In this document: positions 2,487 through 48,018 of the stretch, piece after piece | Position numbering within the stretch: the first letter of the stretch is position 1 | Layout of the letters: each line of letters begins with the position of its first letter | From: Patescibacteria group bacterium | GTDB lineage: Bacteria > Patescibacteriota > JABMPQ01 > JAQVVF01 | Direction of reading: 5' to 3' | Assembly (NCBI GenBank): GCA_041662665.1 | Contig: JBAZSC010000001.1 | Span: forward strand, 257,511-321,510 | Length of the DNA: 64,000 nucleotides | Made by a program: the position numbers and the translations under genes | The notes under the pieces: model-generated | The model's input: only the letters and a program-made list of their open reading frames with translations | The model's database searches: none | Told to the model about the DNA's origin: nothing

Positions 2487-3905
2487 ATGATAAAACGTAC
2501 TAAAATAGTTTGTACTATTGGTCCAGCAAGCGAGGATCAAAATATATTAGAAAAAATGGTAATTTCAGGTTTGGATGTTGCCAGGCTTAACTTTTCTCAT
2601 GGAACTCATGGAAATCATTTGCAATTAATTAGTAAAATCAGAACTTTATCAAAAAAACATAATAAGCCAATTGCAATTATTCAAGATTTGCAAGGTCCAA
2701 GAGTCCGAATTGGTTTATTGAAAGAAGAAGGCATTAAATTATGTCATAGCAAAGAAATAATTTTATCATGCCAAAAAGATGCGAAATTTGTAGAAGGCGA
2801 GATAAATATAATTCCAGTTACGCATCAAAATTTATGCTCTGATGTTAAAGTTGGTCAAACTATTTTACTTGATGATGGTCAAATAATTTTAAAAGTAAAA
2901 AAAATCGAAAATCAAAATATCCATTGCTTAATTGAAAGTAATGACTGCAAACTTGTTTCGCACAAAGGCATTAATGTGCCGGAAAGCAAGCTTTCTGTGC
3001 CAACTTTGACAGAAAAAGACAAACAAGATTTGCAATTTGGGATAGAAAATAATGTTGATTTTGTTGCCTTATCTTTTGTTAGAGAATCATCTGATGTTTT
3101 AGGAGCCAAAAAAATAATTGGCGATCATAATATCAAAATAATTTCTAAAATAGAAAAAAGAGAAGCTATCAAAAATTTTGACGAGATTTTAGAAGCAAGC
3201 GATGCCATCATGGTTGCCAGAGGCGATTTAGGTATTGAAATGCCAGCTGAAGAAGTTCCAATTTTACAGAAAAAAATAATTGATAAATGTCTAAAAGCAG
3301 CTAAGCCTGTAATTGTCGCAACTCAGATGCTAGATTCAATGATTAGAAATCCAAGACCAACCAGAGCCGAAGTTTCTGATGTTGCTAATGCAGTAATTGA
3401 TCATGCTGATGCAGTTATGCTTTCTGGAGAGTCAGCTTCTGGAAAATATCCTATTCAGGCAGTTGAAACAATGAACAAAATAATTTTGGAAACAGAAAAA
3501 TCACATTATGATGATTTGGTTTTCAAAGATTCAATCAAAAAAATTCCGATAGATTCCGCAATTTCCGAAGTCGCCAATATTCTAGCAAAAAGCGTTGATG
3601 CCAAATTAATTTTAGCTGCGTCATTATCTGGCGATACTGGCAGAATAATTTCTCGCTATCGTCCAGAATTGCCAATTTTTGTTGCAACAGATTCAGAAAA
3701 AGTTCAGCGTCAAGTCAACCTTTCTTGGGGCACTTTTCCATTTATAATTAAGACTTGCAAAACTGTTGAAGAATTAATTGAAGTTTCAATTAATCATATC
3801 AAAGAAAATAAGATTGTCATTGTAAAAGACAAAATAATAATCATCGCTGGCGAGCCTGTTGGCAAGTCAGGCGTGAACTTAGTTGAGATTAAAGAGATTG
3901 AATAA
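2487..3905 (+). CDS. pyk: pyruvate kinase
   Basis: 472 aa. N-terminus MIKRTKIVCTIGPAS...LNFSHG and the downstream MVARGDLGIEMP motif are canonical pyruvate kinase signatures. Confidence 0.9.
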   Translation: MIKRTKIVCTIGPASEDQNILEKMVISGLDVARLNFSHGTHGNHLQLISKIRTLSKKHNKPIAIIQDLQGPRVRIGLLKEEGIKLCHSKEIILSCQKDAKFVEGEINIIPVTHQNLCSDVKVGQTILLDDGQIILKVKKIENQNIHCLIESNDCKLVSHKGINVPESKLSVPTLTEKDKQDLQFGIENNVDFVALSFVRESSDVLGAKKIIGDHNIKIISKIEKREAIKNFDEILEASDAIMVARGDLGIEMPAEEVPILQKKIIDKCLKAAKPVIVATQMLDSMIRNPRPTRAEVSDVANAVIDHADAVMLSGESASGKYPIQAVETMNKIILETEKSHYDDLVFKDSIKKIPIDSAISEVANILAKSVDAKLILAASLSGDTGRIISRYRPELPIFVATDSEKVQRQVNLSWGTFPFIIKTCKTVEELIEVSINHIKENKIVIVKDKIIIIAGEPVGKSGVNLVEIKEIE

Positions 3906-3973
3906 GTCTAAAGTCTAAAATCTTAAATTAAAAATAAAGTCAAAAATTAGAAATAAAATCTAAAATAAAAAAT

Positions 3974-4349
3974 ATGACCGAAGAAAATAAATCTTTTGGC
4001 GAGAAAATGAAAGTAAGGATTTATAATCTTATTCTAAAAATTATTAAATTTACGGAATCTTTGCCCAAAAATGATGAAGTCTGTAGAGTAGCAATAAATC
4101 AATTGATCAGAAGTGGGACAAGCATTTGCGCTAATTATGTAGAAGCTACAGCCGGAACAAGTAAAAAAGATTTTTCCAATTTTTAAAGCTATTCATTAAA
4201 ATCAGCAAATGAATCAAATTTTGGCTAGCTTTATTAAGAGATACGAAAAAAGGAAACAAAAAAACAATTGAAGAATTACTAAAAGAATTAATTGAAATTT
4301 CTAATATCTTAGGAGCGAGTATTGGCACAATGAAAATGAAAAAGAAATA
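3974..4349 (+). pseudogene. four-helix-bundle protein gene (TIGR02436-like, 23S-IVS-type) interrupted by an in-frame TAA
   Basis: Frame 3974 reads ...ICANYVEATAGTSKKDFSNF then TAA at 4184-4186. The same frame continues as SYSLKSANESNFWLALLRDTKK...ILGASIGTMKMKKK. Family members have Leu at the stop position, so a TTA to TAA change is likely. Confidence 0.5.
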
Positions 4350-4422
4350 ATTATTTTTAACTTTTAACTTTACTTTTAATTTTTAATTCTATTTTAGACT
4401 TTAGACTTTAGACTAAAAACTT

Positions 4423-6783
4423 ATGCAACATATTCTTTGGTTCAACGAAATTAATATCAAAAATGTCAACGAGGTTGGCGGTAAAAACGCATCATTGGGC
4501 GAAATGTACCAAAATTTAACTAAGCAAGGAGTCAGAATTCCAAATGGCTTTGCAATCACAGCTGATGCTTATTGGTATTTTTTAGAGTCTGCCAAAATCA
4601 AAGACAAAATTAAAGAAATATTAAAAAATTTTTCCAAAAAAGATTTAGTTGCAAAAGGCACTTTAATTCGAGGCACGATTTTGAATGCTGATTTTCCAAA
4701 AGATTTAAAACAAGAAATAATTTCTGCTTACAAAAAATTAAGTTCCGAATCAAAAAAAGAAAATGTTGATGTTGCAGTTAGATCAAGCGCAACTGCTGAA
4801 GACGCGCCAGATGCTTCTTTTGCTGGACAGCAAGAATCATATCTCAATATTAAAGGTGAAAAAGAATTATTATTAGCCTGCAAAAGATGTATTTCATCTT
4901 TATTTACCGACCGCTCAATTTCATATCGCTTAGATAAAAAAATCAGTTTATTTAATGTTGCCTTGTCAGTTGGCGTTCAAAAAATGGTTCGTTCTGACAA
5001 AGCAAGTGCTGGCGTTATGTTTACTTTAGATCCAGAATCAGGTTTTAAAAATGTTATTGTAATAAATGGAGCTTTTGGATTAGGTGAAAACGTAGTTAAA
5101 GGCCGAGTCATTCCAGATGAATTTTGCGTCCACAAAGAATTATTGAAAAAAGGTTTCAAGCCAATCGTTGGAAAAACTTTAGGCAAAAAAGAAAAAACTT
5201 TAATTTATACCGACAATCCAAATTCACCAACAATAAACATTAAACTTAGCGATGAAAAAAGAAACATTTTTGTTTTAAATGACAAAGAAATTTTGGAATT
5301 AGCAAAATTCGGTTTGGCAATTGATGAGCATTACAAAAGACCAATGGATATCGAATGGGCAAAAGATGGCAATAATAATAAATTATATATCGTTCAAGCT
5401 CGTCCAGAAACAATTCACAAAAAAGAAAATGAAAAAGTTTTTAACGAATATTATTTAGCTAAAAAAGGCAAAGTCTTATTAGAAGGCGCTGCCATTGGTT
5501 CAAAGATAGGTCAAGGAAAAGTCCAATTAATTTTAGATGTCAAAAATATTGAAGAATTTAAAGAGGGCGAAATTTTAGTTACAACAAGCACTGATCCTGA
5601 TTGGGAGCCAGTAATGCGCAAAGCCAAAGCAATTATTACAGATACTGGTGGCAGGACATGTCATGCAGCAATCGTTTCACGCGAATTAGGAATTCCATGT
5701 ATTGTTGGTACTAACAAAGCCACAGAAATCTTGAAAGATAATCAAGAAATCACAGTCAGTTGTGCTGAAGGGGAGATTGGAAAGATTTATCAAGGATTAT
5801 TAGAAATAAAAACTCGTAAAATAGATTTAACAAATTTAAAAAAACCAAAGACAAAAATAATGATGAATGTCGGCGTGCCATTAGAGGCATTTGCGCTAAC
5901 TTCAATTCCAAATGATGGCATTGGTTTGGCTCGAGAAGAATTTATAATCGCTAATTCTATAAAAATTCATCCTAAAGCATTATTAAATTTTTCAACTTTG
6001 AAAGATAAAGATGCGAAAGAAAAAATAGCCGAAATTACAAAAAATTATAAAAATAAGTCAAAATTTTTTATTGATCATTTAGCTTGGGATATGGGCAGAA
6101 TTGCTGCAGCATTTTATCCAAATGATGTTATTGTTCGAACTTCAGATTTTAAGACTAATGAATACGCACAACTTTTAGGCGGAAAAGAATTTGAACCAAA
6201 AGAATCAAATCCAATGATTGGCTGGCGTGGAGCATCTCGCTATTATGATGAAAAATATAAAGATGCATTTGTTATGGAATGCGAGGCTTTAAAAAAATTG
6301 CGTGAAGAAATGGGATTTAGTAATGTAAAAATAATGATTCCTTTTTGCCGGACAGTAGATGAAGGCAAAAAAGTTTTAGCAATAATGAAAGAACATGGAC
6401 TAGAACGAGGTAAAAATAAATTAGAAGTTTACGTTATGGTTGAGATTCCATCTAACGTAATTCTAGCAGATCAATTTGCCAAAATTTTTGATGGTTTTTC
6501 AATTGGCACCAATGATTTAACTCAATTAACTTTAGGAGTTGATCGCGATTCTTCACTAGTTGCCCATGTTTATGACGAAAGAAATGAGGCTGTCAAAACT
6601 TTAGTTAAACAAGTGATCAAAGTTGCTCATGAAAATAAAATAAAAATTGGCATCTGTGGTGATGCGCCATCTACATTTCCAGATTTTGCTCAATTTTTAA
6701 TTGATAATAAAATTGATTCAATATCATTGTCGCCAGATGCAGTTTTTAAAACTACTTTAGAAATCCAGAAAAAAGAAAAATAA
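4423..6783 (+). CDS. ppsA: phosphoenolpyruvate synthase (pyruvate, water dikinase)
   Basis: 786 aa. N-terminus WFNEINIKNVNEVGGKNASLGEM is the PpsA ATP-grasp start. The phosphohistidine region GGRTCHAAIVSRELGIPCIVG and the C-terminal PEP-utilising domain are present. Confidence 0.9.
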   Translation: MQHILWFNEINIKNVNEVGGKNASLGEMYQNLTKQGVRIPNGFAITADAYWYFLESAKIKDKIKEILKNFSKKDLVAKGTLIRGTILNADFPKDLKQEIISAYKKLSSESKKENVDVAVRSSATAEDAPDASFAGQQESYLNIKGEKELLLACKRCISSLFTDRSISYRLDKKISLFNVALSVGVQKMVRSDKASAGVMFTLDPESGFKNVIVINGAFGLGENVVKGRVIPDEFCVHKELLKKGFKPIVGKTLGKKEKTLIYTDNPNSPTINIKLSDEKRNIFVLNDKEILELAKFGLAIDEHYKRPMDIEWAKDGNNNKLYIVQARPETIHKKENEKVFNEYYLAKKGKVLLEGAAIGSKIGQGKVQLILDVKNIEEFKEGEILVTTSTDPDWEPVMRKAKAIITDTGGRTCHAAIVSRELGIPCIVGTNKATEILKDNQEITVSCAEGEIGKIYQGLLEIKTRKIDLTNLKKPKTKIMMNVGVPLEAFALTSIPNDGIGLAREEFIIANSIKIHPKALLNFSTLKDKDAKEKIAEITKNYKNKSKFFIDHLAWDMGRIAAAFYPNDVIVRTSDFKTNEYAQLLGGKEFEPKESNPMIGWRGASRYYDEKYKDAFVMECEALKKLREEMGFSNVKIMIPFCRTVDEGKKVLAIMKEHGLERGKNKLEVYVMVEIPSNVILADQFAKIFDGFSIGTNDLTQLTLGVDRDSSLVAHVYDERNEAVKTLVKQVIKVAHENKIKIGICGDAPSTFPDFAQFLIDNKIDSISLSPDAVFKTTLEIQKKEK

Positions 6784-6868
6784 TATAAATATAATATATT
6801 GTTTTGATTAAGTCAGGTTTAATACTTGACTTAATTTAATTAATATATTAATATATTTTTATTGGTTT

Positions 6869-7125
6869 GCACCTTTCCCGGAGCCAGCAAGAGGCTCCAT
6901 CACCAGGAGGAAAAGCAGAATGGCAGCTGAGACCAAGACCCCGTCCTACGACTTCGTTCCCGCAACCTCCGCCAACGGTGGTCGGATCTTCGCAGTGGTC
7001 GAGACCACCAAGATCGCTACCCCCCATGAAGGAGGTTCGGACAAGCCGGAGAACGTGAGGCCCTGCAAGAGCAGGACGATTCACGGGCGGGGCAAGAAGC
7101 AGTAAGCTTCAGCTCTAGATTAATT
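6869..7125. other. GC-anomalous island (about 60% GC in a 30% GC context); candidate structured RNA or acquired micro-gene
   Basis: Every frame on both strands is open (ORFs 6848-7084, 6867-7058, 6920-7105, 7017-7253). AGGAGG at 6905-6910 sits 9 nt before the ATG at 6920 of a 61-codon ORF with GC-rich third positions. Local hairpins include GGAGCC/GGCTCC and GGTGGTC/GACCACC. Confidence 0.4.
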
Positions 7126-7245
7126 GTTTTTTGTAAAATACACGTTCTTTTTTTAACCATATAGTCCGATTCGTCGGGCTCTTTTTTTGGCCTCACTCGA
7201 ATGCTTTTTCGAATATTTCGAATGCCATAGTATTGTAATTTATCA

Positions 7246-7270
7246 TTTTTCATTTATAATTTAGTTATTC
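7246..7270 (+). promoter_or_regulatory. conserved 24-nt tRNA-associated motif ATTTTTCATTTATAATTTAGTTATT (contains a perfect TATAAT); copy 1
   Basis: Sits 6 nt upstream of tRNA-Ser(GGA). An identical 24-mer is at 12185-12211 and a close variant at 8215-8243. Confidence 0.5.
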
Positions 7271-7275
7271 GCAAT

Positions 7276-7360
7276 GGAGAGGTCGCATAGTGGCCTAGTG
7301 CGCAGGCTTGGAAAGCTTGTATATCGAAAGATATCGAGGGTTCGACTCCCTCCCTCTCCG
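7276..7360 (+). tRNA. tRNA-Ser (anticodon GGA)
   Basis: Manual fold: acceptor GGAGAGG/CCTCTCC, anticodon stem CAGGC/GCTTG with loop TTGGAAA, long variable arm, T-arm GAGGG-TTCGACT-CCCTC, discriminator G. CCA is not encoded. Confidence 0.85.
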
Positions 7361-7495
7361 TCTTCGCCCGCCGAAGCTTTAGCAAAAGCGAAGGCGGGAA
7401 AGATGAGTATTTAAATTAATATCTGTTTTTTTATAATTCTTGGGCGGGCTTCGACGGACAAAGTCCGCTTCTACTGATGCTTTAGCGAAGGTGGA
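7361..7495 (+). repeat. tRNA-Ser 3'-flank unit with GCTTTAGC-type hairpins (family B); copy 1
   Basis: The flank contains CCCGCCgaaGCTTTagcAAAGCgaaGGCGGG, then atatctgttttttt, then GGCGGGCTTCGACGGACAAAGTCCG. A near-identical block follows the second tRNA-Ser at 8336-8450. Confidence 0.7.
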
Positions 7496-7528: not shown

Positions 7529-8158
7529 ATGTTTAGCAATACAAAAACAAAGATTAAAGAATTATCGTCTTATAATTTTTTTGCTACATTAATTGTTGTT
7601 AATGTAGTTTTTATTTTTCTTGGACTAATTTTTTATAATGGCAATTTTAATTTTTGGTCATATCCGTTTAGTTATCTCAGCGATGTCAAAACAGTTGACG
7701 GAATACAAAATAATATATCATCAATTATTTACAGTTTTGAGATGTTTACTAGTGGAATGATAATGATCAGCTTATTTTACAAATTCTACAAAAATAATTA
7801 TAGAAAAAAAGATCTTTTTATTCTAATATTTACATTTCTATGTTCTTCAGGTTTTTTGATTGCATGTTTTAGTCCAGATGATTCTCGGCAATATCTTCAT
7901 ATCTTTGGTTCAGCTCTAGTTGTAGCTTCACTTTGGCTAATTGCTACAAAATATTTATTTAATTTAAAAAAAGATTTAAAACAATTCAAGTATTATTTTT
8001 GGCAGACAATTTTGCAATTTTCCGTTTTTTCTTATGGTCTGACATATTTATTCAGAATCGAACCTCTTGCAACAATCTTGCAAAAATTTGCCTTTCTTGG
8101 GCTTGGCCTAGCTTTACTTTATGCTACTTATTTTGAAAAAAAGTTAAAAAATAAATAA
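7529..8158 (+). CDS. hypothetical membrane protein (about 6 TM helices)
   Basis: 209-aa ORF lying between the two tRNA-Ser units. Hydrophobic segments throughout and no motif recognised. Confidence 0.4.
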   Translation: MFSNTKTKIKELSSYNFFATLIVVNVVFIFLGLIFYNGNFNFWSYPFSYLSDVKTVDGIQNNISSIIYSFEMFTSGMIMISLFYKFYKNNYRKKDLFILIFTFLCSSGFLIACFSPDDSRQYLHIFGSALVVASLWLIATKYLFNLKKDLKQFKYYFWQTILQFSVFSYGLTYLFRIEPLATILQKFAFLGLGLALLYATYFEKKLKNK

Positions 8159-8248: not shown

Positions 8249-8335
8249 GGAGAGGTGCCTGAGCGGCCGAAAGGACTAGTCTTGAAAACTAGCGCAGCCT
8301 CACGGTTGCCGTGGGTTCGAATCCCACCCTCTCCG
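8249..8335 (+). tRNA. tRNA-Ser (anticodon TGA)
   Basis: Acceptor GGAGAGG/CCTCTCC, anticodon stem CTAGT/ACTAG with loop CTTGAAA, long variable arm, T-arm GTGGG-TTCGAAT-CCCAC. It is a paralog of the tRNA at 7276. Confidence 0.85.
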
Positions 8336-8450
8336 TCTTCGCCCGCCGTAGCTTTAGCAAAAGCGAAGGCGGGATAGCTAAGTAAAAAAGTCAATATCTG
8401 TTTTTTTGTATTTCACAGGCGGGCTTCGACGGACAAAGTCCGTTTTTTGG
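8336..8450 (+). repeat. tRNA-Ser 3'-flank unit (family B); copy 2
   Basis: tcttcGCCCGCCgtaGCTTTAGCaaaagcgaaGGCGGG ... GGCGGGCTTCGACGGACAAAGTCCG. It is collinear with 7361-7495. Confidence 0.7.
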
Positions 8451-12296: not shown

Positions 12297-12360
12297 CCGT
12301 GTCCGCCGATTTATCTGCCGAAGCTTTAGCATAGGCAGAAGCTTTAGCGAAGGCGGAATA
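12297..12360. repeat. family B repeat block (two GAAGCTTTAGC units with GGCGG/CCGCC stems)
   Basis: gtgTCCGCCgatttatctgccGAAGCTTTAGCataggcaGAAGCTTTAGCgaaGGCGGAatac. Confidence 0.6.
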
Positions 12361-18924: not shown

Positions 18925-21900
18925 ATGTTAAAAGATCTTAATACAGAACAACTCCAAGCCGTCAAACACGAAACAGGTCCACTACTTATCGTTGCCGGCG
19001 CTGGCACAGGAAAAACAACAGCCATTACTAAAAAATTGGCTTATTTAATTTTGGAAAAAAAAGTAAAGCCAGAAAATATTTTAGCGTTAACTTTTACTGA
19101 AAAAGCAGCTGCTGAAATGGAGGAGCGAGTAGACAAATTAATGCCTTATGGTTATACAGATTTATGGATTGAAACCTTTCATGGTTTTTGTGATCGAATT
19201 TTAAAAGATAACGCCTTAGATGTTGGCTTAGACCCAAATTACAAATTATTAACTTCTGCAGAACAATGGATGTTCATCAAATCCAAAATTTTTGATTTTG
19301 ATTTGAAATATTATAGACCATTAGGCAATCCTAATTCATTTATTTCAGAATTAATCAAACATTTTTCTCGCGCTAAAGATGAAAATATCTTGCCAGAAGA
19401 TTATTTGAAATTCGTCAAAAAACTATCCGCCTCCGCTCCTGCGGGAGCTTCGGCGGACAAAGAAACCATAGACAAAATGTCAGAAGTTGCCAAATCTTAC
19501 AAAAAATATCAAGAATTAATGGTCGCCGAAAGTCAGATGGATTTTGGTGATTTAATTATTGAAACATTAAAATTATTTAAAAAAAGAAAAAATATTCTAA
19601 AAAAATATCAAAAACAATTCCAATATATTCTAGTTGATGAATTTCAAGATACTAATTTTGCCCAATATCAATTATTGCAACTTTTAGCACCGCCACAAAA
19701 TAATTTAACTGTTGTCGGCGATGATGACCAATGCCTGCCTCCTGATTCCAAAATTGAAACAAAAACTGGAATAAAGAAAATAAATAAAATAAAAAAAGGA
19801 GAATTAGTTTTATCAGCAGTGGGCAAGGGACATACCTCTTATTATCAAGTTAATAAAGTTATCAAAAATAAAAAAAATGCTCGTTTCCTAAATATTTCAA
19901 CAAAAAATGGAAATAAAATTACAATTACTGATAATCACAAAATGTTTTGCTTTGTACCTTTAAAATCAGATAAAAAATATTACTATGTTTATTTAATGGA
20001 AAAAAGAAATTTAGGATATAGGCTTGGCATAACTAACGATTTAGCGACGCGATTAAGATTAGAACGAGGGGCTGATCGAATTATTGGTATTAAGTCCTTT
20101 AAATCAGAAATTGAAGCAAGATATTATGAAACATTGCTTTCATTAAAATATCAAATTCCTTTAACCTGTTTTTGTTTCCGTCCTGGAGTTTTTATGAATA
20201 AGGAACTGTTAGAAAAACTTTACCAAGAATTTGATACTTATAAAAATGCGGAAAGATTAGCCAAAGATTTAAAAATTGATTTATCAGCTCATCATTTTGC
20301 GTTAGATGCAGTTAATCGCGGTAGCAGTTTAAGAATAAAAATCATAATTGAACAGTGTTACCGTAAACATGTTAGCAAAGTCAGAAGAGGCATCCTTTTT
20401 GGACCCAAAATCAGTCATTCTGTAATAGTAGAAACATCGGACAAGAAAACTATTGAAACACTAAAGAAAAATGGTTTTAATTTAAGAAAAGCAAGAAAAA
20501 ATGGTTTTAGGTTTAAATATACAGATCAAGATTTTCAAAAAGTTGGACAAATCGCTTTAAAATTAGAAAAAATTACAGGCGGTATTTTAGAAACCAGATT
20601 TGAAGTTGGCGCATTAAATATTAAACACCGAAAAGCCTTGATGATGCCAGCCAAAAATTTGCTTGTTGGACATTTTTTACCTGTATTAAAAAAAGACAAT
20701 AAAGAAATTATTTATGATGAAATAATTGATATCAAAGAAAAAAATAAGACTAGCAATGTCTATGATTTAGAAATCGAAAAAACACATAATTTCATTGCTG
20801 ATAATATTGTTGTGCATAATTCTATCTATAAATTTCGCGGCGCTTCTGTTAGCAATATTTTGCAATTCCAAAAAGATTTTCCCAAAAGCAAAAAAATAGT
20901 TTTGACAGAAAATTATCGATCAGTTCAGCCAATTCTCGATTTAGCATATAATTCAATTCAATTAAATAATCCAGATCGGTTAGAAGCAAAATATAAAATC
21001 AATAAAAAATTAAAATCACAAATTAAATCTAAAAGCGATTTAGCAATCAATCATATCCATAAGGCAACATATGAGCAAGAAGCAGTTGATGTCATCAAAA
21101 ATATTATTAATCTAAAACAAAAAGATAAATCAACTTGGTCAGATTTTGCAATTCTAGTGCGCGCAAATTCTTCTGCTGAAATATTCATCAATCTTTTATC
21201 TTCAAAAAAAATTCCATATCAATTCATTGCATCTCGCGGACTTTATTCTCGCCCAGAAATTATGGATTTAATTTCGTATTTGCGTGTTGTTGCAAATTTT
21301 TATGATAATATTAATTTTTATCGCGTTTTAAGTTTGCCAATTTTTAAATTAAATTCAGAAGATATAATTAGACTTGTTGCCTATAGCCGTCGTAAAAATT
21401 TAAGCATTTTTGATTTAGCTTGCACACCAAGTCGAATTGTCGGACTGAATAAAGATAGTGTTGAAAAATTTAAAGTTGTTGTTGAACTAGTTAAAAAACA
21501 TGCAAAACTTAGTTTGGAAAAAAATGCCGCTGAAGTTTTGTTAGACTTTTTAAAAACATCCGGTTATTTAAAATATTTGCAAACCAATAAAGATTTAGAA
21601 GCAGAAAAAAAGATTTTGAATATCTCATTATTTTTCAAAAGAATCCAAGAATTGCAGGAAAATAAAAAATTAACTGTTCCAGAATTTATTGATCAATTAG
21701 ATTTGATGATTGAAGCAGGCGAGGATCCATCGCCAATCCAATTAGATGAAGGCCCAGATTCAATCAAAATTTTGACTATCCATTCTTCAAAAGGATTAGA
21801 ATTTGATAATGTTTTTGTCGTCAATATGGTTGAAGGAAAATTTCCATCTCGAAACAGAAAAGATTTAATTGAATTGCCAGAAAAATTAATTAAAGAGCAA

Positions 21901-22902
21901 TTGCCAGATTCAAATTCCAATATTCAAGAAGAAAGAAGACTATTTTATGTAGCAATGACTCGTGCAAAGAAAAGGTTATTTTTTACATCTGCCAATGATT
22001 ATGGCGGAAAAAGAAAAAAGAAAATTTCTAGATTTTTAGTTGAAATTAAAAAACATTTTGATAAAAATTCCGCGTTTTCTGCGTTAGATTCTGCGTGTTT
22101 CCGCGATAACAATATTTTAACGCAGAATAACGCTGAACCTAACGCAGAAAACGCGAAAAAGAAAATAAGATATTCTTTACCAAGTAAATTTTCATACACT
22201 CAGCTTAAAGCATTTGAAACTTGTCCGCATCAATACCGTTTCCGCCATATTATTGGTTTGCCAAGTTCAGGCGCTTCTTCTCAAAGTTATGGAAAAACAA
22301 TGCATGCAGTTTTGCAAAACTTTTTCGCTGATTTGCAAAAAGGAAAAAGTCCGACAGAAAAAGATTTATTAAGTTATTATGACAGTTTTTGGATCGATGA
22401 TTTTTATCAAGACAAAAAGCACGAACAAAAAAGATTTGAAGAAGGCAAGAAAGCTTTGCAAGAATTTTACAAAATAAATAATAAAAATTTAAAAGCGCCG
22501 TTATTTTTAGAAAAAGGCTTTAACCTAAGAATTAAAGACACATGTCTAAAAGGCCAGATTGATCGCATTGATAAATTAGATGATGGCACAGTTGAGATCG
22601 TTGATTATAAAACAGGCAAATTGCCAAAGAATGAAAAGGAAGTAGAGAAAAATGAGCAATTATTGATTTATTCTTATGCCTGCCAAAAAGTATTAAATTT
22701 AAAACCATCAAAACTAAGCCTTTATTTTATTGACCAAAACAAAAAATATTCTGCTAAACAAAATTCAATTAAAGAAGAAAAGATAATTCAAAAAGTCCAA
22801 GAACTAATTGCTAAAATTAAAGAATCAGAATTTATTGCCAAGCCAGGCTTTGCATGCAAATTTTGTGACTATAAGGATATCTGTGAACATGCTAAACATT
22901 GA
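18925..22902 (+). CDS. UvrD/PcrA-type SF1 helicase fused to a C-terminal RecB/Cas4-like PD-(D/E)xK nuclease with Cys cluster; intein-containing
   Basis: Walker A GAGTGKTT, motif III VVGDDDQ|...|SIYKFRGA split by the intein, and TENYRS. The C-terminal CPHQYRF...IDRIDKL...IVDYKTGK...CKFCDYKDICEH is an AddB/Cas4-like nuclease with four Cys. Confidence 0.8.
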   Translation: MLKDLNTEQLQAVKHETGPLLIVAGAGTGKTTAITKKLAYLILEKKVKPENILALTFTEKAAAEMEERVDKLMPYGYTDLWIETFHGFCDRILKDNALDVGLDPNYKLLTSAEQWMFIKSKIFDFDLKYYRPLGNPNSFISELIKHFSRAKDENILPEDYLKFVKKLSASAPAGASADKETIDKMSEVAKSYKKYQELMVAESQMDFGDLIIETLKLFKKRKNILKKYQKQFQYILVDEFQDTNFAQYQLLQLLAPPQNNLTVVGDDDQCLPPDSKIETKTGIKKINKIKKGELVLSAVGKGHTSYYQVNKVIKNKKNARFLNISTKNGNKITITDNHKMFCFVPLKSDKKYYYVYLMEKRNLGYRLGITNDLATRLRLERGADRIIGIKSFKSEIEARYYETLLSLKYQIPLTCFCFRPGVFMNKELLEKLYQEFDTYKNAERLAKDLKIDLSAHHFALDAVNRGSSLRIKIIIEQCYRKHVSKVRRGILFGPKISHSVIVETSDKKTIETLKKNGFNLRKARKNGFRFKYTDQDFQKVGQIALKLEKITGGILETRFEVGALNIKHRKALMMPAKNLLVGHFLPVLKKDNKEIIYDEIIDIKEKNKTSNVYDLEIEKTHNFIADNIVVHNSIYKFRGASVSNILQFQKDFPKSKKIVLTENYRSVQPILDLAYNSIQLNNPDRLEAKYKINKKLKSQIKSKSDLAINHIHKATYEQEAVDVIKNIINLKQKDKSTWSDFAILVRANSSAEIFINLLSSKKIPYQFIASRGLYSRPEIMDLISYLRVVANFYDNINFYRVLSLPIFKLNSEDIIRLVAYSRRKNLSIFDLACTPSRIVGLNKDSVEKFKVVVELVKKHAKLSLEKNAAEVLLDFLKTSGYLKYLQTNKDLEAEKKILNISLFFKRIQELQENKKLTVPEFIDQLDLMIEAGEDPSPIQLDEGPDSIKILTIHSSKGLEFDNVFVVNMVEGKFPSRNRKDLIELPEKLIKEQLPDSNSNIQEERRLFYVAMTRAKKRLFFTSANDYGGKRKKKISRFLVEIKKHFDKNSAFSALDSACFRDNNILTQNNAEPNAENAKKKIRYSLPSKFSYTQLKAFETCPHQYRFRHIIGLPSSGASSQSYGKTMHAVLQNFFADLQKGKSPTEKDLLSYYDSFWIDDFYQDKKHEQKRFEEGKKALQEFYKINNKNLKAPLFLEKGFNLRIKDTCLKGQIDRIDKLDDGTVEIVDYKTGKLPKNEKEVEKNEQLLIYSYACQKVLNLKPSKLSLYFIDQNKKYSAKQNSIKEEKIIQKVQELIAKIKESEFIAKPGFACKFCDYKDICEHAKH
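19426..19462 (+). repeat. family B nested-hairpin repeat inserted in-frame in the helicase CDS
   Basis: TCCGCCtccGCTCCtgcgGGAGCttcGGCGGAcaaag encodes SASAPAGASADKE. It is architecturally identical to the intergenic 27905-27941 CCCGCCttcGCTCCtcgtcatttGGAGCtacGGCGGG. Confidence 0.55.
19732..20820 (+). mobile_element. intein (363 aa) inserted in helicase motif III, with putative homing-endonuclease domain
   Basis: Begins with Cys (CLPPDSKIETKTG) right after VVGDDDQ and ends VVHN before S of SIYKFRGA, so excision restores the canonical VGDDDQSIYKFRGA. The internal YYYVYLMEKRNLGYRLGITNDLATRL is GIY-YIG-like. Confidence 0.75.
22068..22158 (+). repeat. CTGCGTT-unit palindromic repeat (family A) inserted in-frame in the helicase CDS
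   Basis: ccgCGTTttCTGCGTTagattCTGCGTgtttccgcg...AACGCAGAAtaacgctgaacctAACGCAGAAAACGcg. It translates in-frame as SAFSALDSACFRDNNILTQNNAEPNAENAKK, lying between the helicase and nuclease parts. Confidence 0.65.
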
Positions 22903-32380: not shown

Positions 32381-32552
32381 TTTTTCCTCCTCCTCAAGGT
32401 GCTACAGAAAAAATATCATTGTTTTTGATTTTTGTCAATATCATCCCAAAAAATAAAAAACTCTTGACAATCTAATTATTTATTAATATAATGGAACTAA
32501 TAAATAGTGGTTCCAGCCGCTGTTTTTTTAAACATAAATTACTGATTGGAAA

Positions 32553-32645
32553 TCTTTCTGCGTTTTCCGCGTTGGATTCCGCATTTTCCGCGTTAAAAAC
32601 TTTATCGCAGAAAAACGCAGAATTGAACGCAGAAAACGCGGAATA
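32553..32645. repeat. CTGCGTT-unit palindromic repeat (family A), intergenic copy
   Basis: tttCTGCGTTttccGCGTTggattccgcattttccGCGTTaaaaactttatcGCAGAAaAACGCAGAAttgAACGCAGAAAACGCGgaa. Confidence 0.7.
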
Positions 32646-33452: not shown

Positions 33453-33460
33453 ACAAAAAA

Positions 33461-33570
33461 GAATCTGGAATCTAGAATCTCGAATCTAGAATAGAATTTA
33501 GAATGTGAAATATTCTAAATTCTACATTCTTTATTCATTCTAGATTCTAAATTCAAGATTCCAGATTCTC
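33461..33570. repeat. long AT-rich perfect-ish palindrome (GAATCTAGAAT / ATTCTAGATTC arms)
   Basis: aatctggaatctagaatctcgaatctagaatagaatttagaatgtgaaatattc | taaattctacattctttattcattctagattctaaattcaagattccagattc. Confidence 0.7.
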
Positions 33571-34711: not shown

Positions 34712-34808
34712 TCTTTCTGCGTTTTTCTGCGTAAGTTTTTGCGTGATTCTGCGTTCAAGATTTTAACGCAGAGATACGCAGAATTTGACGCAGAAGACGC
34801 AGAATTAA
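34712..34808. repeat. CTGCGTT-unit palindromic repeat (family A), intergenic copy
   Basis: tttCTGCGTTtttCTGCGTaagtttttGCGTgattCTGCGTTcaagattttAACGCAGAgatACGCAGAAtttgACGCAGAAgACGCAGAAtt. Confidence 0.7.
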
Positions 34809-39228: not shown

Positions 39229-39257
39229 TTCGTTATTTTTTGTTATGTTATAATTTA

Positions 39258-39388
39258 TGTAGAATCATGAATTATGAATTATGAATCATGATTAGAATAA
39301 TGAATTAAGAATCCTGAATTCATTATTCTTTATTCTAAATTCAAATCATAATTCATAATTCATAATTCTTGATTCATAATTCACATTC
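39258..39388. repeat. long AT-rich palindrome (ATGAATTATGAAT / ATTCATAATTCAT arms)
   Basis: tgtagaatcatgaattatgaattatgaatcatgattagaataatgaattaagaatcctgaattcattattctttattctaaattcaaatcataattcataattcataattcttgattcataattcacattcta. Confidence 0.7.
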
Positions 39389-41006: not shown

Positions 41007-41104
41007 GATACACGCGCACCTTAGACAAACCGCCTACGCTCTGCGGAGCTTCCACCTTCGCTTACGCTTCGGTGGACAAGTCGGCGGTCGAGGGAGGAAA
41101 AGGG

Positions 41105-42121
41105 ATGACAGTAGCTCTCGAGAGAGTTAGTCTCGATGGACATGAACAGCATGGACAGACAAATTGGTGGCAGAGCTATACAGTAACTTTCGATTTGCTT
41201 TGCAAAGAATTTGGTCAAGAAAATCTTCCTGCTGGTTTGCCTCCAAGAATTTTTGTTGTTGACAGTGAAGCTGGACGCAGATTTTTGACTGGCCGTCATC
41301 TTTGGGGTTGGCGCAAGATTAAGCTGATTAAGGAAGTTACTCGTTCTTTGGTTCAGCCATTGGTTGATATTTTCAAAGAATCAAATGGCGAAGTAACACA
41401 GTTTGTTCCATTGAGCGGCGCTGATCCAATGAAAATCGGAAAGGCTTTGCATCATGCTTTGATTTATCCATTCACTGTTGCGCCAATGGCAACAGCATAT
41501 ATTGAAGCAGATCGAAAAGAACAGAAAGATGGTAGCTTCAAAGCAAGGGTCAGAAAACCTTTGAAGAAATTCCCGAAACATCCAGTCGCAGTCATTGTTG
41601 ACACATGTTGCGCCTCTGGTTCTACTCTTCAAGAAACTGTCCGAAGAATTATTGACTGGTACAAGACTGATAAGAAGCCATTGCGCAAGATTATTTTCTT
41701 TACTGCCTGCGGATCACTGGAAGCGCTTCAAGGAATCTGGGCATATTGTCAAAGAAGATGCATCGAATTCATTCCAGTTTTTTCTGTTGGTCTTCATCGA
41801 GTATTTGATGAACCTGGAGTTCTTGGCAAGAGATTTACTGATCTTTCGCCAATTTCGGAAACTGCAATAATGCCTGCCTCATTCATTCCATCAGCAAATG
41901 TTTATTTTCAAGAGAAACCAATGTGTGCTGTTGGCGATGTTGGGGACAGCTTGAGTATGAAATTCGAACTTTATCTTTTTGAAACACTTCGCGAGCTTGC
42001 AATCTTAAAAATGGACTTGAACCGTTCTCCTTGGTGTGAAATGAGAAGTCAAATCCCAACAACTGTTTACTTAAAATTGCAGTCTGAACATATTGGAGAA
42101 TTTTTGTACTATCGTCATTGA
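41105..42121 (+). CDS. hypothetical PRTase-fold protein (PRPP-binding loop motif); GC-elevated gene with GC-rich leader
   Basis: VAVIVDTCCASGSTLQETV matches the type I phosphoribosyltransferase PRPP loop. GC is about 48%. GAGGGAGGAAAAGGG precedes the ATG at 41105, preferred over the ORF-track start at 41072. An 80-nt GC-rich leader carries the hairpin CCACCttcgcttacgcttcGGTGG. Confidence 0.45.
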   Translation: MTVALERVSLDGHEQHGQTNWWQSYTVTFDLLCKEFGQENLPAGLPPRIFVVDSEAGRRFLTGRHLWGWRKIKLIKEVTRSLVQPLVDIFKESNGEVTQFVPLSGADPMKIGKALHHALIYPFTVAPMATAYIEADRKEQKDGSFKARVRKPLKKFPKHPVAVIVDTCCASGSTLQETVRRIIDWYKTDKKPLRKIIFFTACGSLEALQGIWAYCQRRCIEFIPVFSVGLHRVFDEPGVLGKRFTDLSPISETAIMPASFIPSANVYFQEKPMCAVGDVGDSLSMKFELYLFETLRELAILKMDLNRSPWCEMRSQIPTTVYLKLQSEHIGEFLYYRH

Positions 42122-42206
42122 TCTTTGTTTGAAACACAAAACCGACTCTCGTCGGTTTTTTCTTTGTCCGCCGTAGCTTTAGCGGAGGCGGATTCTTTGT
42201 AACTAT

Positions 42207-47181: not shown

Positions 47182-48018
47182 ATGGCAAACGGAGTACCTC
47201 CAACAAATTTACCAACAGACGATCAAAACAAAACAACAAATGAACCACCAAAAAGAGAATTCAAACCATCTCAAGACAGAGTGCAGAATTTTCGTCAGCA
47301 AATGGGCAGAATAAATCCAGATCCAGGAATGCCAAATCGTCCAACGCCTCCAGCTCCACCAAAGCCACCAACACCGCCAGCACCACGTCCACAAGCACCA
47401 AGACCACAGCCTCCTATGCCTCCAAAGTCTCAGCCTCCAGTTCCTCAATTTAAACCAAAAGCGCCTACACCTGCACCGATGCCTCCAAAACCTCAACCTC
47501 AACCTCAGCCGATGACCAAACCTCAAGCTCCGATGCAACCAAAATCACCAGAAATGCCACAACATGCTGATGGACCATCAATTGAGCAAGTAGAGAAAAA
47601 GAATTTAGTCGTTAAAATTATAATTTTAATTCTTGTTGTTGCTGCTTTAGCTGGATTAGTTTTAGGTGGAGTTTTCGCCTACAACAAATGGCTTAATCCA
47701 TCTTCAAAAACAAACACTAATATTGTAGTTAATACTAATCAGCAAGTTGTACCGGAAAATGTGATCATAAAAGAGCAGATTAAAATTAAAGATACTGATG
47801 GTGATACAATGACTGATGAATGGGAAATAAAATATGGATTAGATCCAAACGATCCAGCAGATGCTCAAAAAGATAATGATAAAGACAAGCTAATAAATAT
47901 TGAAGAATTTAAATACAAAACAAATCCAAATAGTCAAGATACAGATGGTGACACATTCAGCGATTATGTTGAGATCCAAAAAGGTTTTAATCCAAATGGA
48001 CAAGGCAAACTTAAATAA
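47182..48018 (+). CDS. membrane-anchored Pro-rich surface protein with Ca-binding thrombospondin-type-3-like repeats
   Basis: PTPPAPPKPPTPPAPRPQAPRPQPPMPP tract, one TM helix, then DTDGDTMTDEWE..GLDPNDPAD..DNDKD and DTDGDTFSDYVE (DxDxDG repeats). Confidence 0.5.
   Translation: MANGVPPTNLPTDDQNKTTNEPPKREFKPSQDRVQNFRQQMGRINPDPGMPNRPTPPAPPKPPTPPAPRPQAPRPQPPMPPKSQPPVPQFKPKAPTPAPMPPKPQPQPQPMTKPQAPMQPKSPEMPQHADGPSIEQVEKKNLVVKIIILILVVAALAGLVLGGVFAYNKWLNPSSKTNTNIVVNTNQQVVPENVIIKEQIKIKDTDGDTMTDEWEIKYGLDPNDPADAQKDNDKDKLINIEEFKYKTNPNSQDTDGDTFSDYVEIQKGFNPNGQGKLK

Follow-up and report, generated by a model that had tools for sequence, protein, structure and literature searches.

A predicted GC-rich transcription unit between ppsA and tRNA-Ser(GGA)

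The stretch of DNA analysed here, referred to as the window, comprises 64 kb of contig JBAZSC010000001.1 (positions 257,511 to 321,510). The subject of this study is a short GC-rich island located in it between ppsA and the serine tRNA gene tRNA-Ser(GGA), together with the 61-codon open reading frame (ORF) that the island carries. The contig was placed in the Patescibacteria (candidate phyla radiation, CPR) by the database names of the closest PpsA homologues. A large protein collection yielded homologues at 90, 89, 90, 73 and 70% identity. The genes identified around the island encode PilM, pilin(s), pyruvate kinase, PpsA, a 23S-rRNA-IVP fragment, tRNA-Ser, an SDR, an FAD-binding protein and an M20 peptidase. 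The initial annotation of this DNA had singled out the island and offered two readings of it: a structured RNA of small size, or a micro-gene of foreign origin that had been acquired recently.

The maximal-scoring G/C segment has a GC content of 60.3%, compared to 32.4% for the whole window, in agreement with the 60%-GC island originally described. In sliding windows, the island is the top peak at both the 150-nt scale (0.627, with the runner-up at 0.573) and the 250-nt scale (0.60, with the runner-up at 0.536), while at 100 nt it ties with two tRNA regions at 0.63. Among compositional outliers it is the strongest at the scale of 150-250 nt. The second-highest GC peak (54%, positions 47290-47540) corresponds to proline-rich, CCA-rich low-complexity coding sequence within ORF 47182-48018, not to an RNA gene. 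The earlier statement that all six frames are open across the island proved to be wrong, as stops are lacking only from the ORF frame and from one of the antisense frames, the remaining four having 1-2 stops each; the antisense frame is open because G/C-ending sense codons yield it as a by-product. Within the ORF, the G/C content of third codon positions (GC3) is 0.79, or 0.77 if the stop codon is included, compared to 0.225 +/- 0.054 (maximum 0.38) in 55 host ORFs, which bears out the preference for G/C-ending codons noticed at first reading.

The locus was compared among four lineages, namely the window, L089/L093, L090/L091/L092 and L094; the window, L089 and L090 are referred to as the close trio. 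In all the orthologous loci the gene order is the same: ppsA, GC-rich island, terminator and tRNA-Ser(GGA). Table 1 reports the features mapped at this locus in the window.

Table 1. Features mapped on and next to the GC-rich unit, in window coordinates
Feature	Position	Strand	Basis and conservation
GC island	6869..7115	.	maximal-scoring segment and sliding windows
Sigma-70-type promoter, TTGACT-17 nt-TAATAT	6826..6854	+	promoter scan; predicted transcription start ~6861
5'-UTR hairpin, GGAGCC-N7-GGCUCC	6880..6898	+	stem invariant and loop varying in window, L089 and L090; no hairpin in L094
Shine-Dalgarno sequence, AGGAGG	6905..6910	+	9 nt before the ATG
61-codon ORF MAAETKTPSYDFVPATSANGGRIFAVVETTKIATPHEGGSDKPENVRPCKSRTIHGRGKKQ, TAA stop	6920..7105	+	orthologous 61-63-codon ORFs in L089/L093, L090/L091 and L094
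Hairpin GAAGC-AGUAA-GCUUC, stop codon in the loop	7096..7110	+	stem invariant in window, L089 and L090
3'-UTR motif GTTCTTTTT	7144..7152	+	invariant columns in all four lineages, including L094
Intrinsic terminator, 7-bp stem AGUCCGA-UUCG-UCGGGCU followed by a U-run	7163..7188	+	terminator scan; kept in all orthologues
tRNA-Ser(GGA)	7275..7362	+	ARAGORN; conserved downstream neighbour

Read on the plus strand, the unit is composed of a predicted promoter, a 5' hairpin, an AGGAGG, an ATG, 61 codons, a stop codon and a predicted terminator, which together represent a complete set of expression signals. Counterparts of the promoter are present in L089 and L090 (TTGACT-17-TACTAT) and in L094 (TTGACA-16-TATCAT, 11/12 matches). 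The 5' untranslated region (UTR) is about 59 nt long and contains the GGAGCC hairpin, a stem-loop that probably stabilises the messenger RNA at its 5' end. Both this hairpin and the pair GGTGGTC (6977-6983) and GACCACC (7003-7009) are present as the initial annotation had indicated, as is the Shine-Dalgarno (SD) sequence with its distance from the start codon; moreover, the ORF translates to the 61 residues originally quoted. The SD is kept in all four lineages, at 4-9 nt from the ATG and with 1-nt indels in the spacer. In the alignment of the close trio, a 1-nt indel falls at or just after the stop codon. In the minimum-free-energy (MFE) folds of the whole transcript, the 3'-UTR motif GUUCUUUUU pairs with the SD region, although the helix is weak. 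The terminator lies 58 nt past the stop codon of the ORF. In L094 (7783-7812), tRNA-Ser(GGA) starts 1 nt past the terminator U-run of the small ORF, so close that a separate promoter could not fit in between; for this reason, transcription of the L094 tRNA may rely on the promoter of the small ORF, by read-through and hence as a co-transcript.

Conservation and coding signatures of the 61-codon frame

The orthologous islands have a GC content of 57-62% in contigs of 34-36% GC, and the four lineages carry ORFs of 61, 62, 61 and 63 codons between ppsA and tRNA-Ser(GGA). The synonymous divergence (dS) of the flanking genes is 0.8-1.3 within the close trio and 1.5-1.9 to L094, whose ORF is beyond recognition by nhmmer and tblastn. 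On the basis of this synteny, the element is old within a narrow clade. Specifically, the PpsA proteins of GTDB species representatives are at most 62% identical to that of the window and the island is found in none of those loci, while in L095/L096 (PpsA 70%) ppsA is followed by other genes and by no island; the L097 contig stops 24 nt past ppsA. The element is single-copy, as neither the window nor any of the other loci contains a paralogue.

In L098 (PpsA 66%), the slot between ppsA and tRNA-Ser(GGA) is occupied by a different orphan ORF of 76-83 residues (5229-5480), with normal GC content and its own SD and terminator. A "DFV...G.R.F" similarity of this ORF to the 61-residue family was considered and rejected, the hhalign probability being 0.1%.

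Small ORFs (sORFs) are defined in PMC11109978 by start and stop codons that are conserved across orthologues. In the window, L089/L093, L090/L091 and L094, the ORF begins with an ATG that follows a GGAGG, and its stop codon falls at an equivalent position. In the close trio, aligned at the nucleotide level with no input from the protein, the two indels that fall within the ORF are of 3 nt, in contrast to the 1-nt indels of the SD-ATG spacer and of the stop. In addition, GC content follows a period of three along the frame. This is most evident in L089, where the first, second and third codon positions show GC contents of 0.53, 0.50 and 0.87 (33, 31 and 54 of 62 positions; chi-square p=1.3e-5), and it is seen also in the window (0.52, 0.54 and 0.79; p=0.004) and in L090 (0.52, 0.49 and 0.74; p=0.011), while the GC3 of L094 is 0.51. 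Such a periodicity points to coding, since a non-coding RNA gives no reason for it. Moreover, shuffles of the same composition leave a frame this long open in only 12-24% of cases. The gene callers of JGI (P0122) and NCBI (P0121) called the window ORF and its orthologue, respectively, both as hypothetical protein. A coding test based on column shuffles gave a z of about 3-4, which we discounted because clustered conservation inflates the score. All together, these data make it quite likely that ORF 6920-7105 is translated, and of the possibilities raised initially, the micro-gene is the one best supported by the frame, SD, ATG and stop kept in four lineages, the indels in multiples of three and the periodic GC content.

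The predicted product is a small basic protein. AlphaFold2, run on two input sequences, modelled strands at residues 8-16 and 22-30 as a beta-hairpin with a predicted local distance difference test score (pLDDT) of about 90, followed by a disordered tail. Isoelectric points range from 9.7 to 11.3, and every one of the four lineages has a net charge of +5 to +6 over its final 15 residues, the tail of L094 having +5. The C-terminal region shows the conserved motif VRPxxSRxIHxRGKKQ, which takes the form VRPC.S.RI in L094; the protein of L094 also retains the general architecture. Values for the grand average of hydropathy (GRAVY) run from -0.35 to -0.93, and in none of the four does the Kyte-Doolittle mean over 19 residues exceed 0.66. 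The 61-residue protein probably binds nucleic acid or the ribosome. Its predicted tryptic peptides include IFAVVETTK and TPSYDFVPATSANGGR. No match to it was found in Pfam, NCBIfam, PHROG or PDB. The suggestion that the ORF encodes the precursor of a ribosomally synthesised and post-translationally modified peptide (RiPP) received no support, as neither the window nor the orthologous loci carry an adjacent RiPP-modifying enzyme (YcaO, radical SAM, lanthionine synthetase etc.).

Retention of G/C, RNA fold and competing explanations

The way in which the island keeps its composition was assayed by polarising substitutions on the three-taxon tree, with ppsA and pyk as the comparison set. Third-position changes from G/C to A/T amount to 9/47 in the ORF versus 128/207 in ppsA and pyk (Fisher p=9.5e-8), a rate about three times slower. 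When a third position does change from G or C, it ends in G or C again in 10/19 cases in the ORF, compared to 3/131 in the two flanking genes (p=1.9e-8). Most of these G<->C changes fall in codons in which the amino acid has changed as well, the replacement codon being again G/C-ending; alignment uncertainty may account for part of the G<->C count, but the third positions remain G/C either way. Therefore, G/C content appears to be favoured by selection acting on the nucleic acid.

A specific RNA architecture was not found to account for this. At the gathering threshold, Rfam 15 recognised only tRNAs in the window; a search of 6750-7280 at E<=10 returned no credible match, and the orthologous islands of L089, L090 and L094 had no match at E<=1. 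ARAGORN detected no tmRNA. The confident Rfam hit that, according to the initial annotation, would have explained the island as a housekeeping RNA was thus looked for and did not occur, either in the window or in the orthologues, and within the reach of Rfam 15 and ARAGORN a small structured RNA of a known or housekeeping kind is refuted. The SD region bears a by-eye likeness to helix 8 of the signal recognition particle (SRP) RNA and to P4 of RNase P RNA, which was rejected, since it lacks both a tetraloop hairpin and the P4 pairing and no covariance model matches it.

As regards folding in general, single plus-strand sequences gave z-scores of -2.0 for the window, -2.1 for L089, -4.6 for L090 and +0.5 for L094. 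The consensus fold of the close trio, measured against column shuffles, reached z=-4.05 on the plus strand (-2.8 for the ORF alone), which dropped to -1.95 with L094 added. Of its 66 consensus pairs, however, 24 vary, 2 of these being compensatory and 14 broken in one sequence, and the RNAalifold covariation term of +0.19 lends no support. Compared to permutations of their own synonymous codons, the native window and L089 sequences gave z of -0.5 to -1.1, L090 -2.7 to -3.2 and L094 +0.6 to +1.5. Local hairpins recur among the orthologues in shifted registers. This evidence supports selection for G/C richness or general compactness, not for an architecture of the ribozyme or riboswitch type; a specific conserved RNA fold is not supported. 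Nor is the novel kind of structured RNA first envisaged, given the few compensatory and the many broken pairs, although it keeps a small probability.

On these grounds, the reading that we favour is that the island is a native monocistronic orphan small-protein gene of a narrow Patescibacteria clade, with an mRNA whose composition is under selection, and we regard this as somewhat more probable than all the rest. Building on the anatomy, conservation, coding signatures and G/C retention described above, we infer the following chain of events. The near-consensus promoter would drive a transcript of about 330 nt, in which the 5' hairpin would be followed by a strong and largely unpaired AGGAGG-ATG start site. 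Translation of the 61 codons would yield a hydrophilic, basic protein that starts with a beta-hairpin and continues into a disordered C-terminal tail rich in Lys and Arg, and the intrinsic terminator would close the unit just upstream of tRNA-Ser(GGA). Selection would keep this message rich in G/C while the genome drives all its other genes towards A/T. The enrichment peaks at the third positions of codons, which the protein leaves free. G/C would most likely be kept for the sake of the mRNA itself, which would fold compactly and resist decay among A/U-rich transcripts. The G/C-rich body and the 5' hairpin may, in this way, give a compact message with a long lifetime in a cell whose RNA is rich in A/U.

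Several observations weigh against this small-protein gene under compositional selection. The ratio of non-synonymous to synonymous divergence (dN/dS) of the ORF is 0.4-0.8, compared to 0.05-0.09 for ppsA and pyk, indicating weak purifying selection; the differences are flat over codon positions (e.g. 24, 20 and 19); and the in-frame translation beats the out-of-frame translations of the same alignment only marginally. In the close trio, the frame would stay open with a probability of 0.33-0.56 per pair and its persistence is thus not improbable. The comparison covers four lineages, and the alignment of the N-terminal third is uncertain, so that G<->C changes are overcounted. On balance, third positions have lost G/C, with 9 changes from G/C to A/T and 1 in the opposite direction, so that slow erosion instead of equilibrium is possible. 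Finally, among 5.8e9 protein clusters the family has two members only, P0122 and P0121, and a profile search of 1.84e9 representative proteins returned nothing beyond two clade members and no distant homologue.

The first alternatives concern an RNA with a task of its own. One is a bifunctional or "armoured" CPR RNA, a small-protein message in which G/C itself would be the trait under selection, either for a second, non-coding job or because a G/C-rich fold would let the RNA persist in an A/U-rich, RNase-exposed cell, e.g. as a long-lived message. It would then exemplify local base-composition selection that overrides the genome-wide mutational pressure in a reduced genome. We hold it to be unlikely, if only slightly less so than the more specific proposal of a dual-function RNA. 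According to the latter, the transcript would encode the 61-residue protein and also act as a structured or base-pairing RNA, which selects for GC. This rather unlikely reading would fit the rate of change at all codon positions, which is about half the neutral one (ORF dS 0.47-0.63 versus ppsA dS 0.81-0.89; ORF dN 0.19-0.44), as well as the G/C held at synonymous sites, the stable consensus fold of the trio, the stability of L090 beyond its own synonymous-codon permutations, and the conservation that extends past the ORF into the 3' UTR and into the hairpins at the 5' end and at the stop codon. It is opposed by the pairs themselves, which are far more often broken than compensated and show almost no covariation, and by the fact that the window and L089 are no more stable than their permutations and L094 is less so.

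A novel structured non-coding RNA, GC-rich as tRNAs are and with the ORF as a by-product of few stop codons, would dispense with the protein altogether. At 60%, the GC content is the same as in the tRNAs that the window encodes, substitutions are flat over codon positions with a high dN/dS, both the consensus fold and the single folds of the trio (MFE z -2.0 to -4.6) are stable, and a frame of this length is open in 12-24% of composition-preserving shuffles of each sequence. Nevertheless, we consider it quite improbable, since it leaves the period-3 GC content without explanation and does not account for the SD, ATG and stop being kept in four lineages, including L094, which has neither detectable nucleotide similarity nor a stable fold. 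The 3n indels confined to the ORF, the lack of an Rfam match at E<=10 and the near absence of covariation argue in the same direction.

The origin of the island from a GC-rich donor, as a decaying and neutral or nearly neutral relic that has not yet reached host composition, would account for a codon usage like that of a genome of about 60% GC, for the net third-position loss of G/C, for the lower GC3 of L094 and for the weak amino-acid constraint. This origin is very doubtful. Synteny of the unit extends to lineages in which the synonymous sites of the flanking genes are saturated or nearly so (dS 0.8-1.8), and recent transfer, as first proposed, is unlikely because the divergence of the flanking genes, both within the trio and to L094, gave ample time for drift to host composition; instead, the G/C-ending codons resist A/T drift, decaying at one third of the rate of the flanking genes and being replaced by other G/C-ending codons, and the host-type promoter, SD and terminator are conserved. 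Nor does the label of foreign DNA hold: no homologue outside the clade was found in the protein clusters or the representative proteins, tblastn of the peptides had no match in phage and plasmid collections, where blastn of the island gave one chance 29-nt match, and a viral-contig scan with a 26-mer returned nothing. A metagenome scan with the 22-mer AGGAGGAAAAGCAGAATGGCAG, a poorly suited pattern, gave six chance matches to unrelated genes, all in ordinary translation-start regions.

An assembly chimera or contaminant fragment, for which the compositional jump is the sole support, can be practically dismissed, since both island junctions have identical sequence in the independent Logan assembly L001, and assemblies from four other samples carry orthologous islands at the same position, with a divergence that tracks that of the flanking genes.

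Neighbouring elements and comparison with known systems

Several repeated elements lie close to the unit or elsewhere in the window. A 136-nt direct repeat (87% identical; 7335-7470 and 8310-8445) comprises the 3' parts of tRNA-Ser(GGA) and tRNA-Ser(TGA) together with a GC-rich downstream element, and its copies flank an orphan ORF of 209 residues (7529-8158) that matches nothing in Pfam or NCBIfam. The two tRNA-Ser genes of L089 and L094 are separated by about 100 nt that hold no further element, and the ORF 7529-8158 region looks like a window-specific insertion between the tRNA-Ser genes. A GC-rich palindrome of about 35 nt, TCTTCGCCCGCCGAAGCTTTAGCAAAAGCGAAGGCGG, is dispersed at 7361-7397, 8336-8365, 12308-12337 and 42161-42190, and inverted at 19427-19463; it often follows tRNA or other genes immediately and resembles repetitive extragenic palindromic (REP) sequences or terminators. 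A GC-rich leader related to this element (41010-41105) lies upstream of an ORF starting near 41072-41106.

Upstream of ppsA, the pyk-ppsA spacer is variable (window 3905-4414; L089 4106-4969; L090 4995-5001). In the window it contains a truncated 23S-rRNA-IVP/four-helix-bundle ORF of 70 residues (3974-4186) with a 64-nt inverted repeat on either side (3905-3968 and 4351-4414), while L089 and L093 hold an orphan ORF of 287 residues and L090 and L094 hold nothing. The PpsA homologues P0008, P0009, P0018 and P0079 (about 1200-1320 residues) contain intein/LAGLIDADG domains (PF14528, PF14890). In addition, intergenic regions of the window carry AT-rich arrays of short repeats, some of them long inverted repeats, in families of the TTCTGCGTTTTCTGCGTT type and of the GAATCTAGAATC type, located at 2377-2433, 22050-22158, 32538-32643 and 34757-34804, and at 33460-33569 and 39250-39380.

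Compositional outliers of AT-rich genomes are routinely taken as structured RNA or foreign DNA, and the island appears to be neither. If our reading is true, it would provide a clean natural case of selection on mRNA composition or structure on top of coding constraint. If confirmed, it would also add a new orphan small protein to the poorly understood Patescibacteria and call for caution in GC-island screens for non-coding RNA. On the present evidence from four lineages, it is a modest curiosity, not a discovery.

The closest category of known elements is represented by the sORF candidates that emerge from GC-rich intergenic region (GC-IGR) screens of AT-rich bacteria, carried out by the Breaker laboratory (GC-IGR/DIMPL; PMC11109978, PMC8723152). 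Such sORFs are rare in these screens, with 3 candidates in a tally totalling 4714 (PMC11109978). What sets the island apart from them is the concentration of its G/C at third codon positions, where it resists the A/T drive of the genome, and its Patescibacteria (CPR) host. No report of third-position G/C concentration for GC-IGR sORF candidates is known to us, no search aimed at it having been made.

The island resembles the tRNAs, RNase P RNA, tmRNA, SRP RNA and 6S RNA of AT-rich genomes in that it reaches about 60% GC against about 32% and adjoins tRNA genes. Unlike these GC-rich structured RNAs, it shows no covariance-model match, and it has a period-3 GC content and a conserved ORF. A second likeness is to type I toxin mRNAs, of which hok, tisB and fst are examples: the island also has a small ORF in a compact, GC-rich and stable-looking mRNA with a 5' hairpin, and its 3' UTR may pair with the SD region. 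However, its peptide is hydrophilic and basic and lacks a transmembrane segment (maximum 19-residue hydropathy 0.66), and a consensus scan of the minus strand revealed no antisense promoter reading into the island. On these two counts the element was rejected as a type I toxin gene.

Finally, some dual-function RNAs encode a small protein, as in SgrS/SgrT, RNAIII/delta-haemolysin and SR1/SR1P. The island differs from these in having no demonstrable base-pairing target, seed region or conserved fold, and in lacking any sequence or family relationship to them. As in these RNAs, however, it would correspond to a short, separate and structured transcript, endowed with its own promoter and terminator, which carries a small ORF and is constrained at the nucleotide level.

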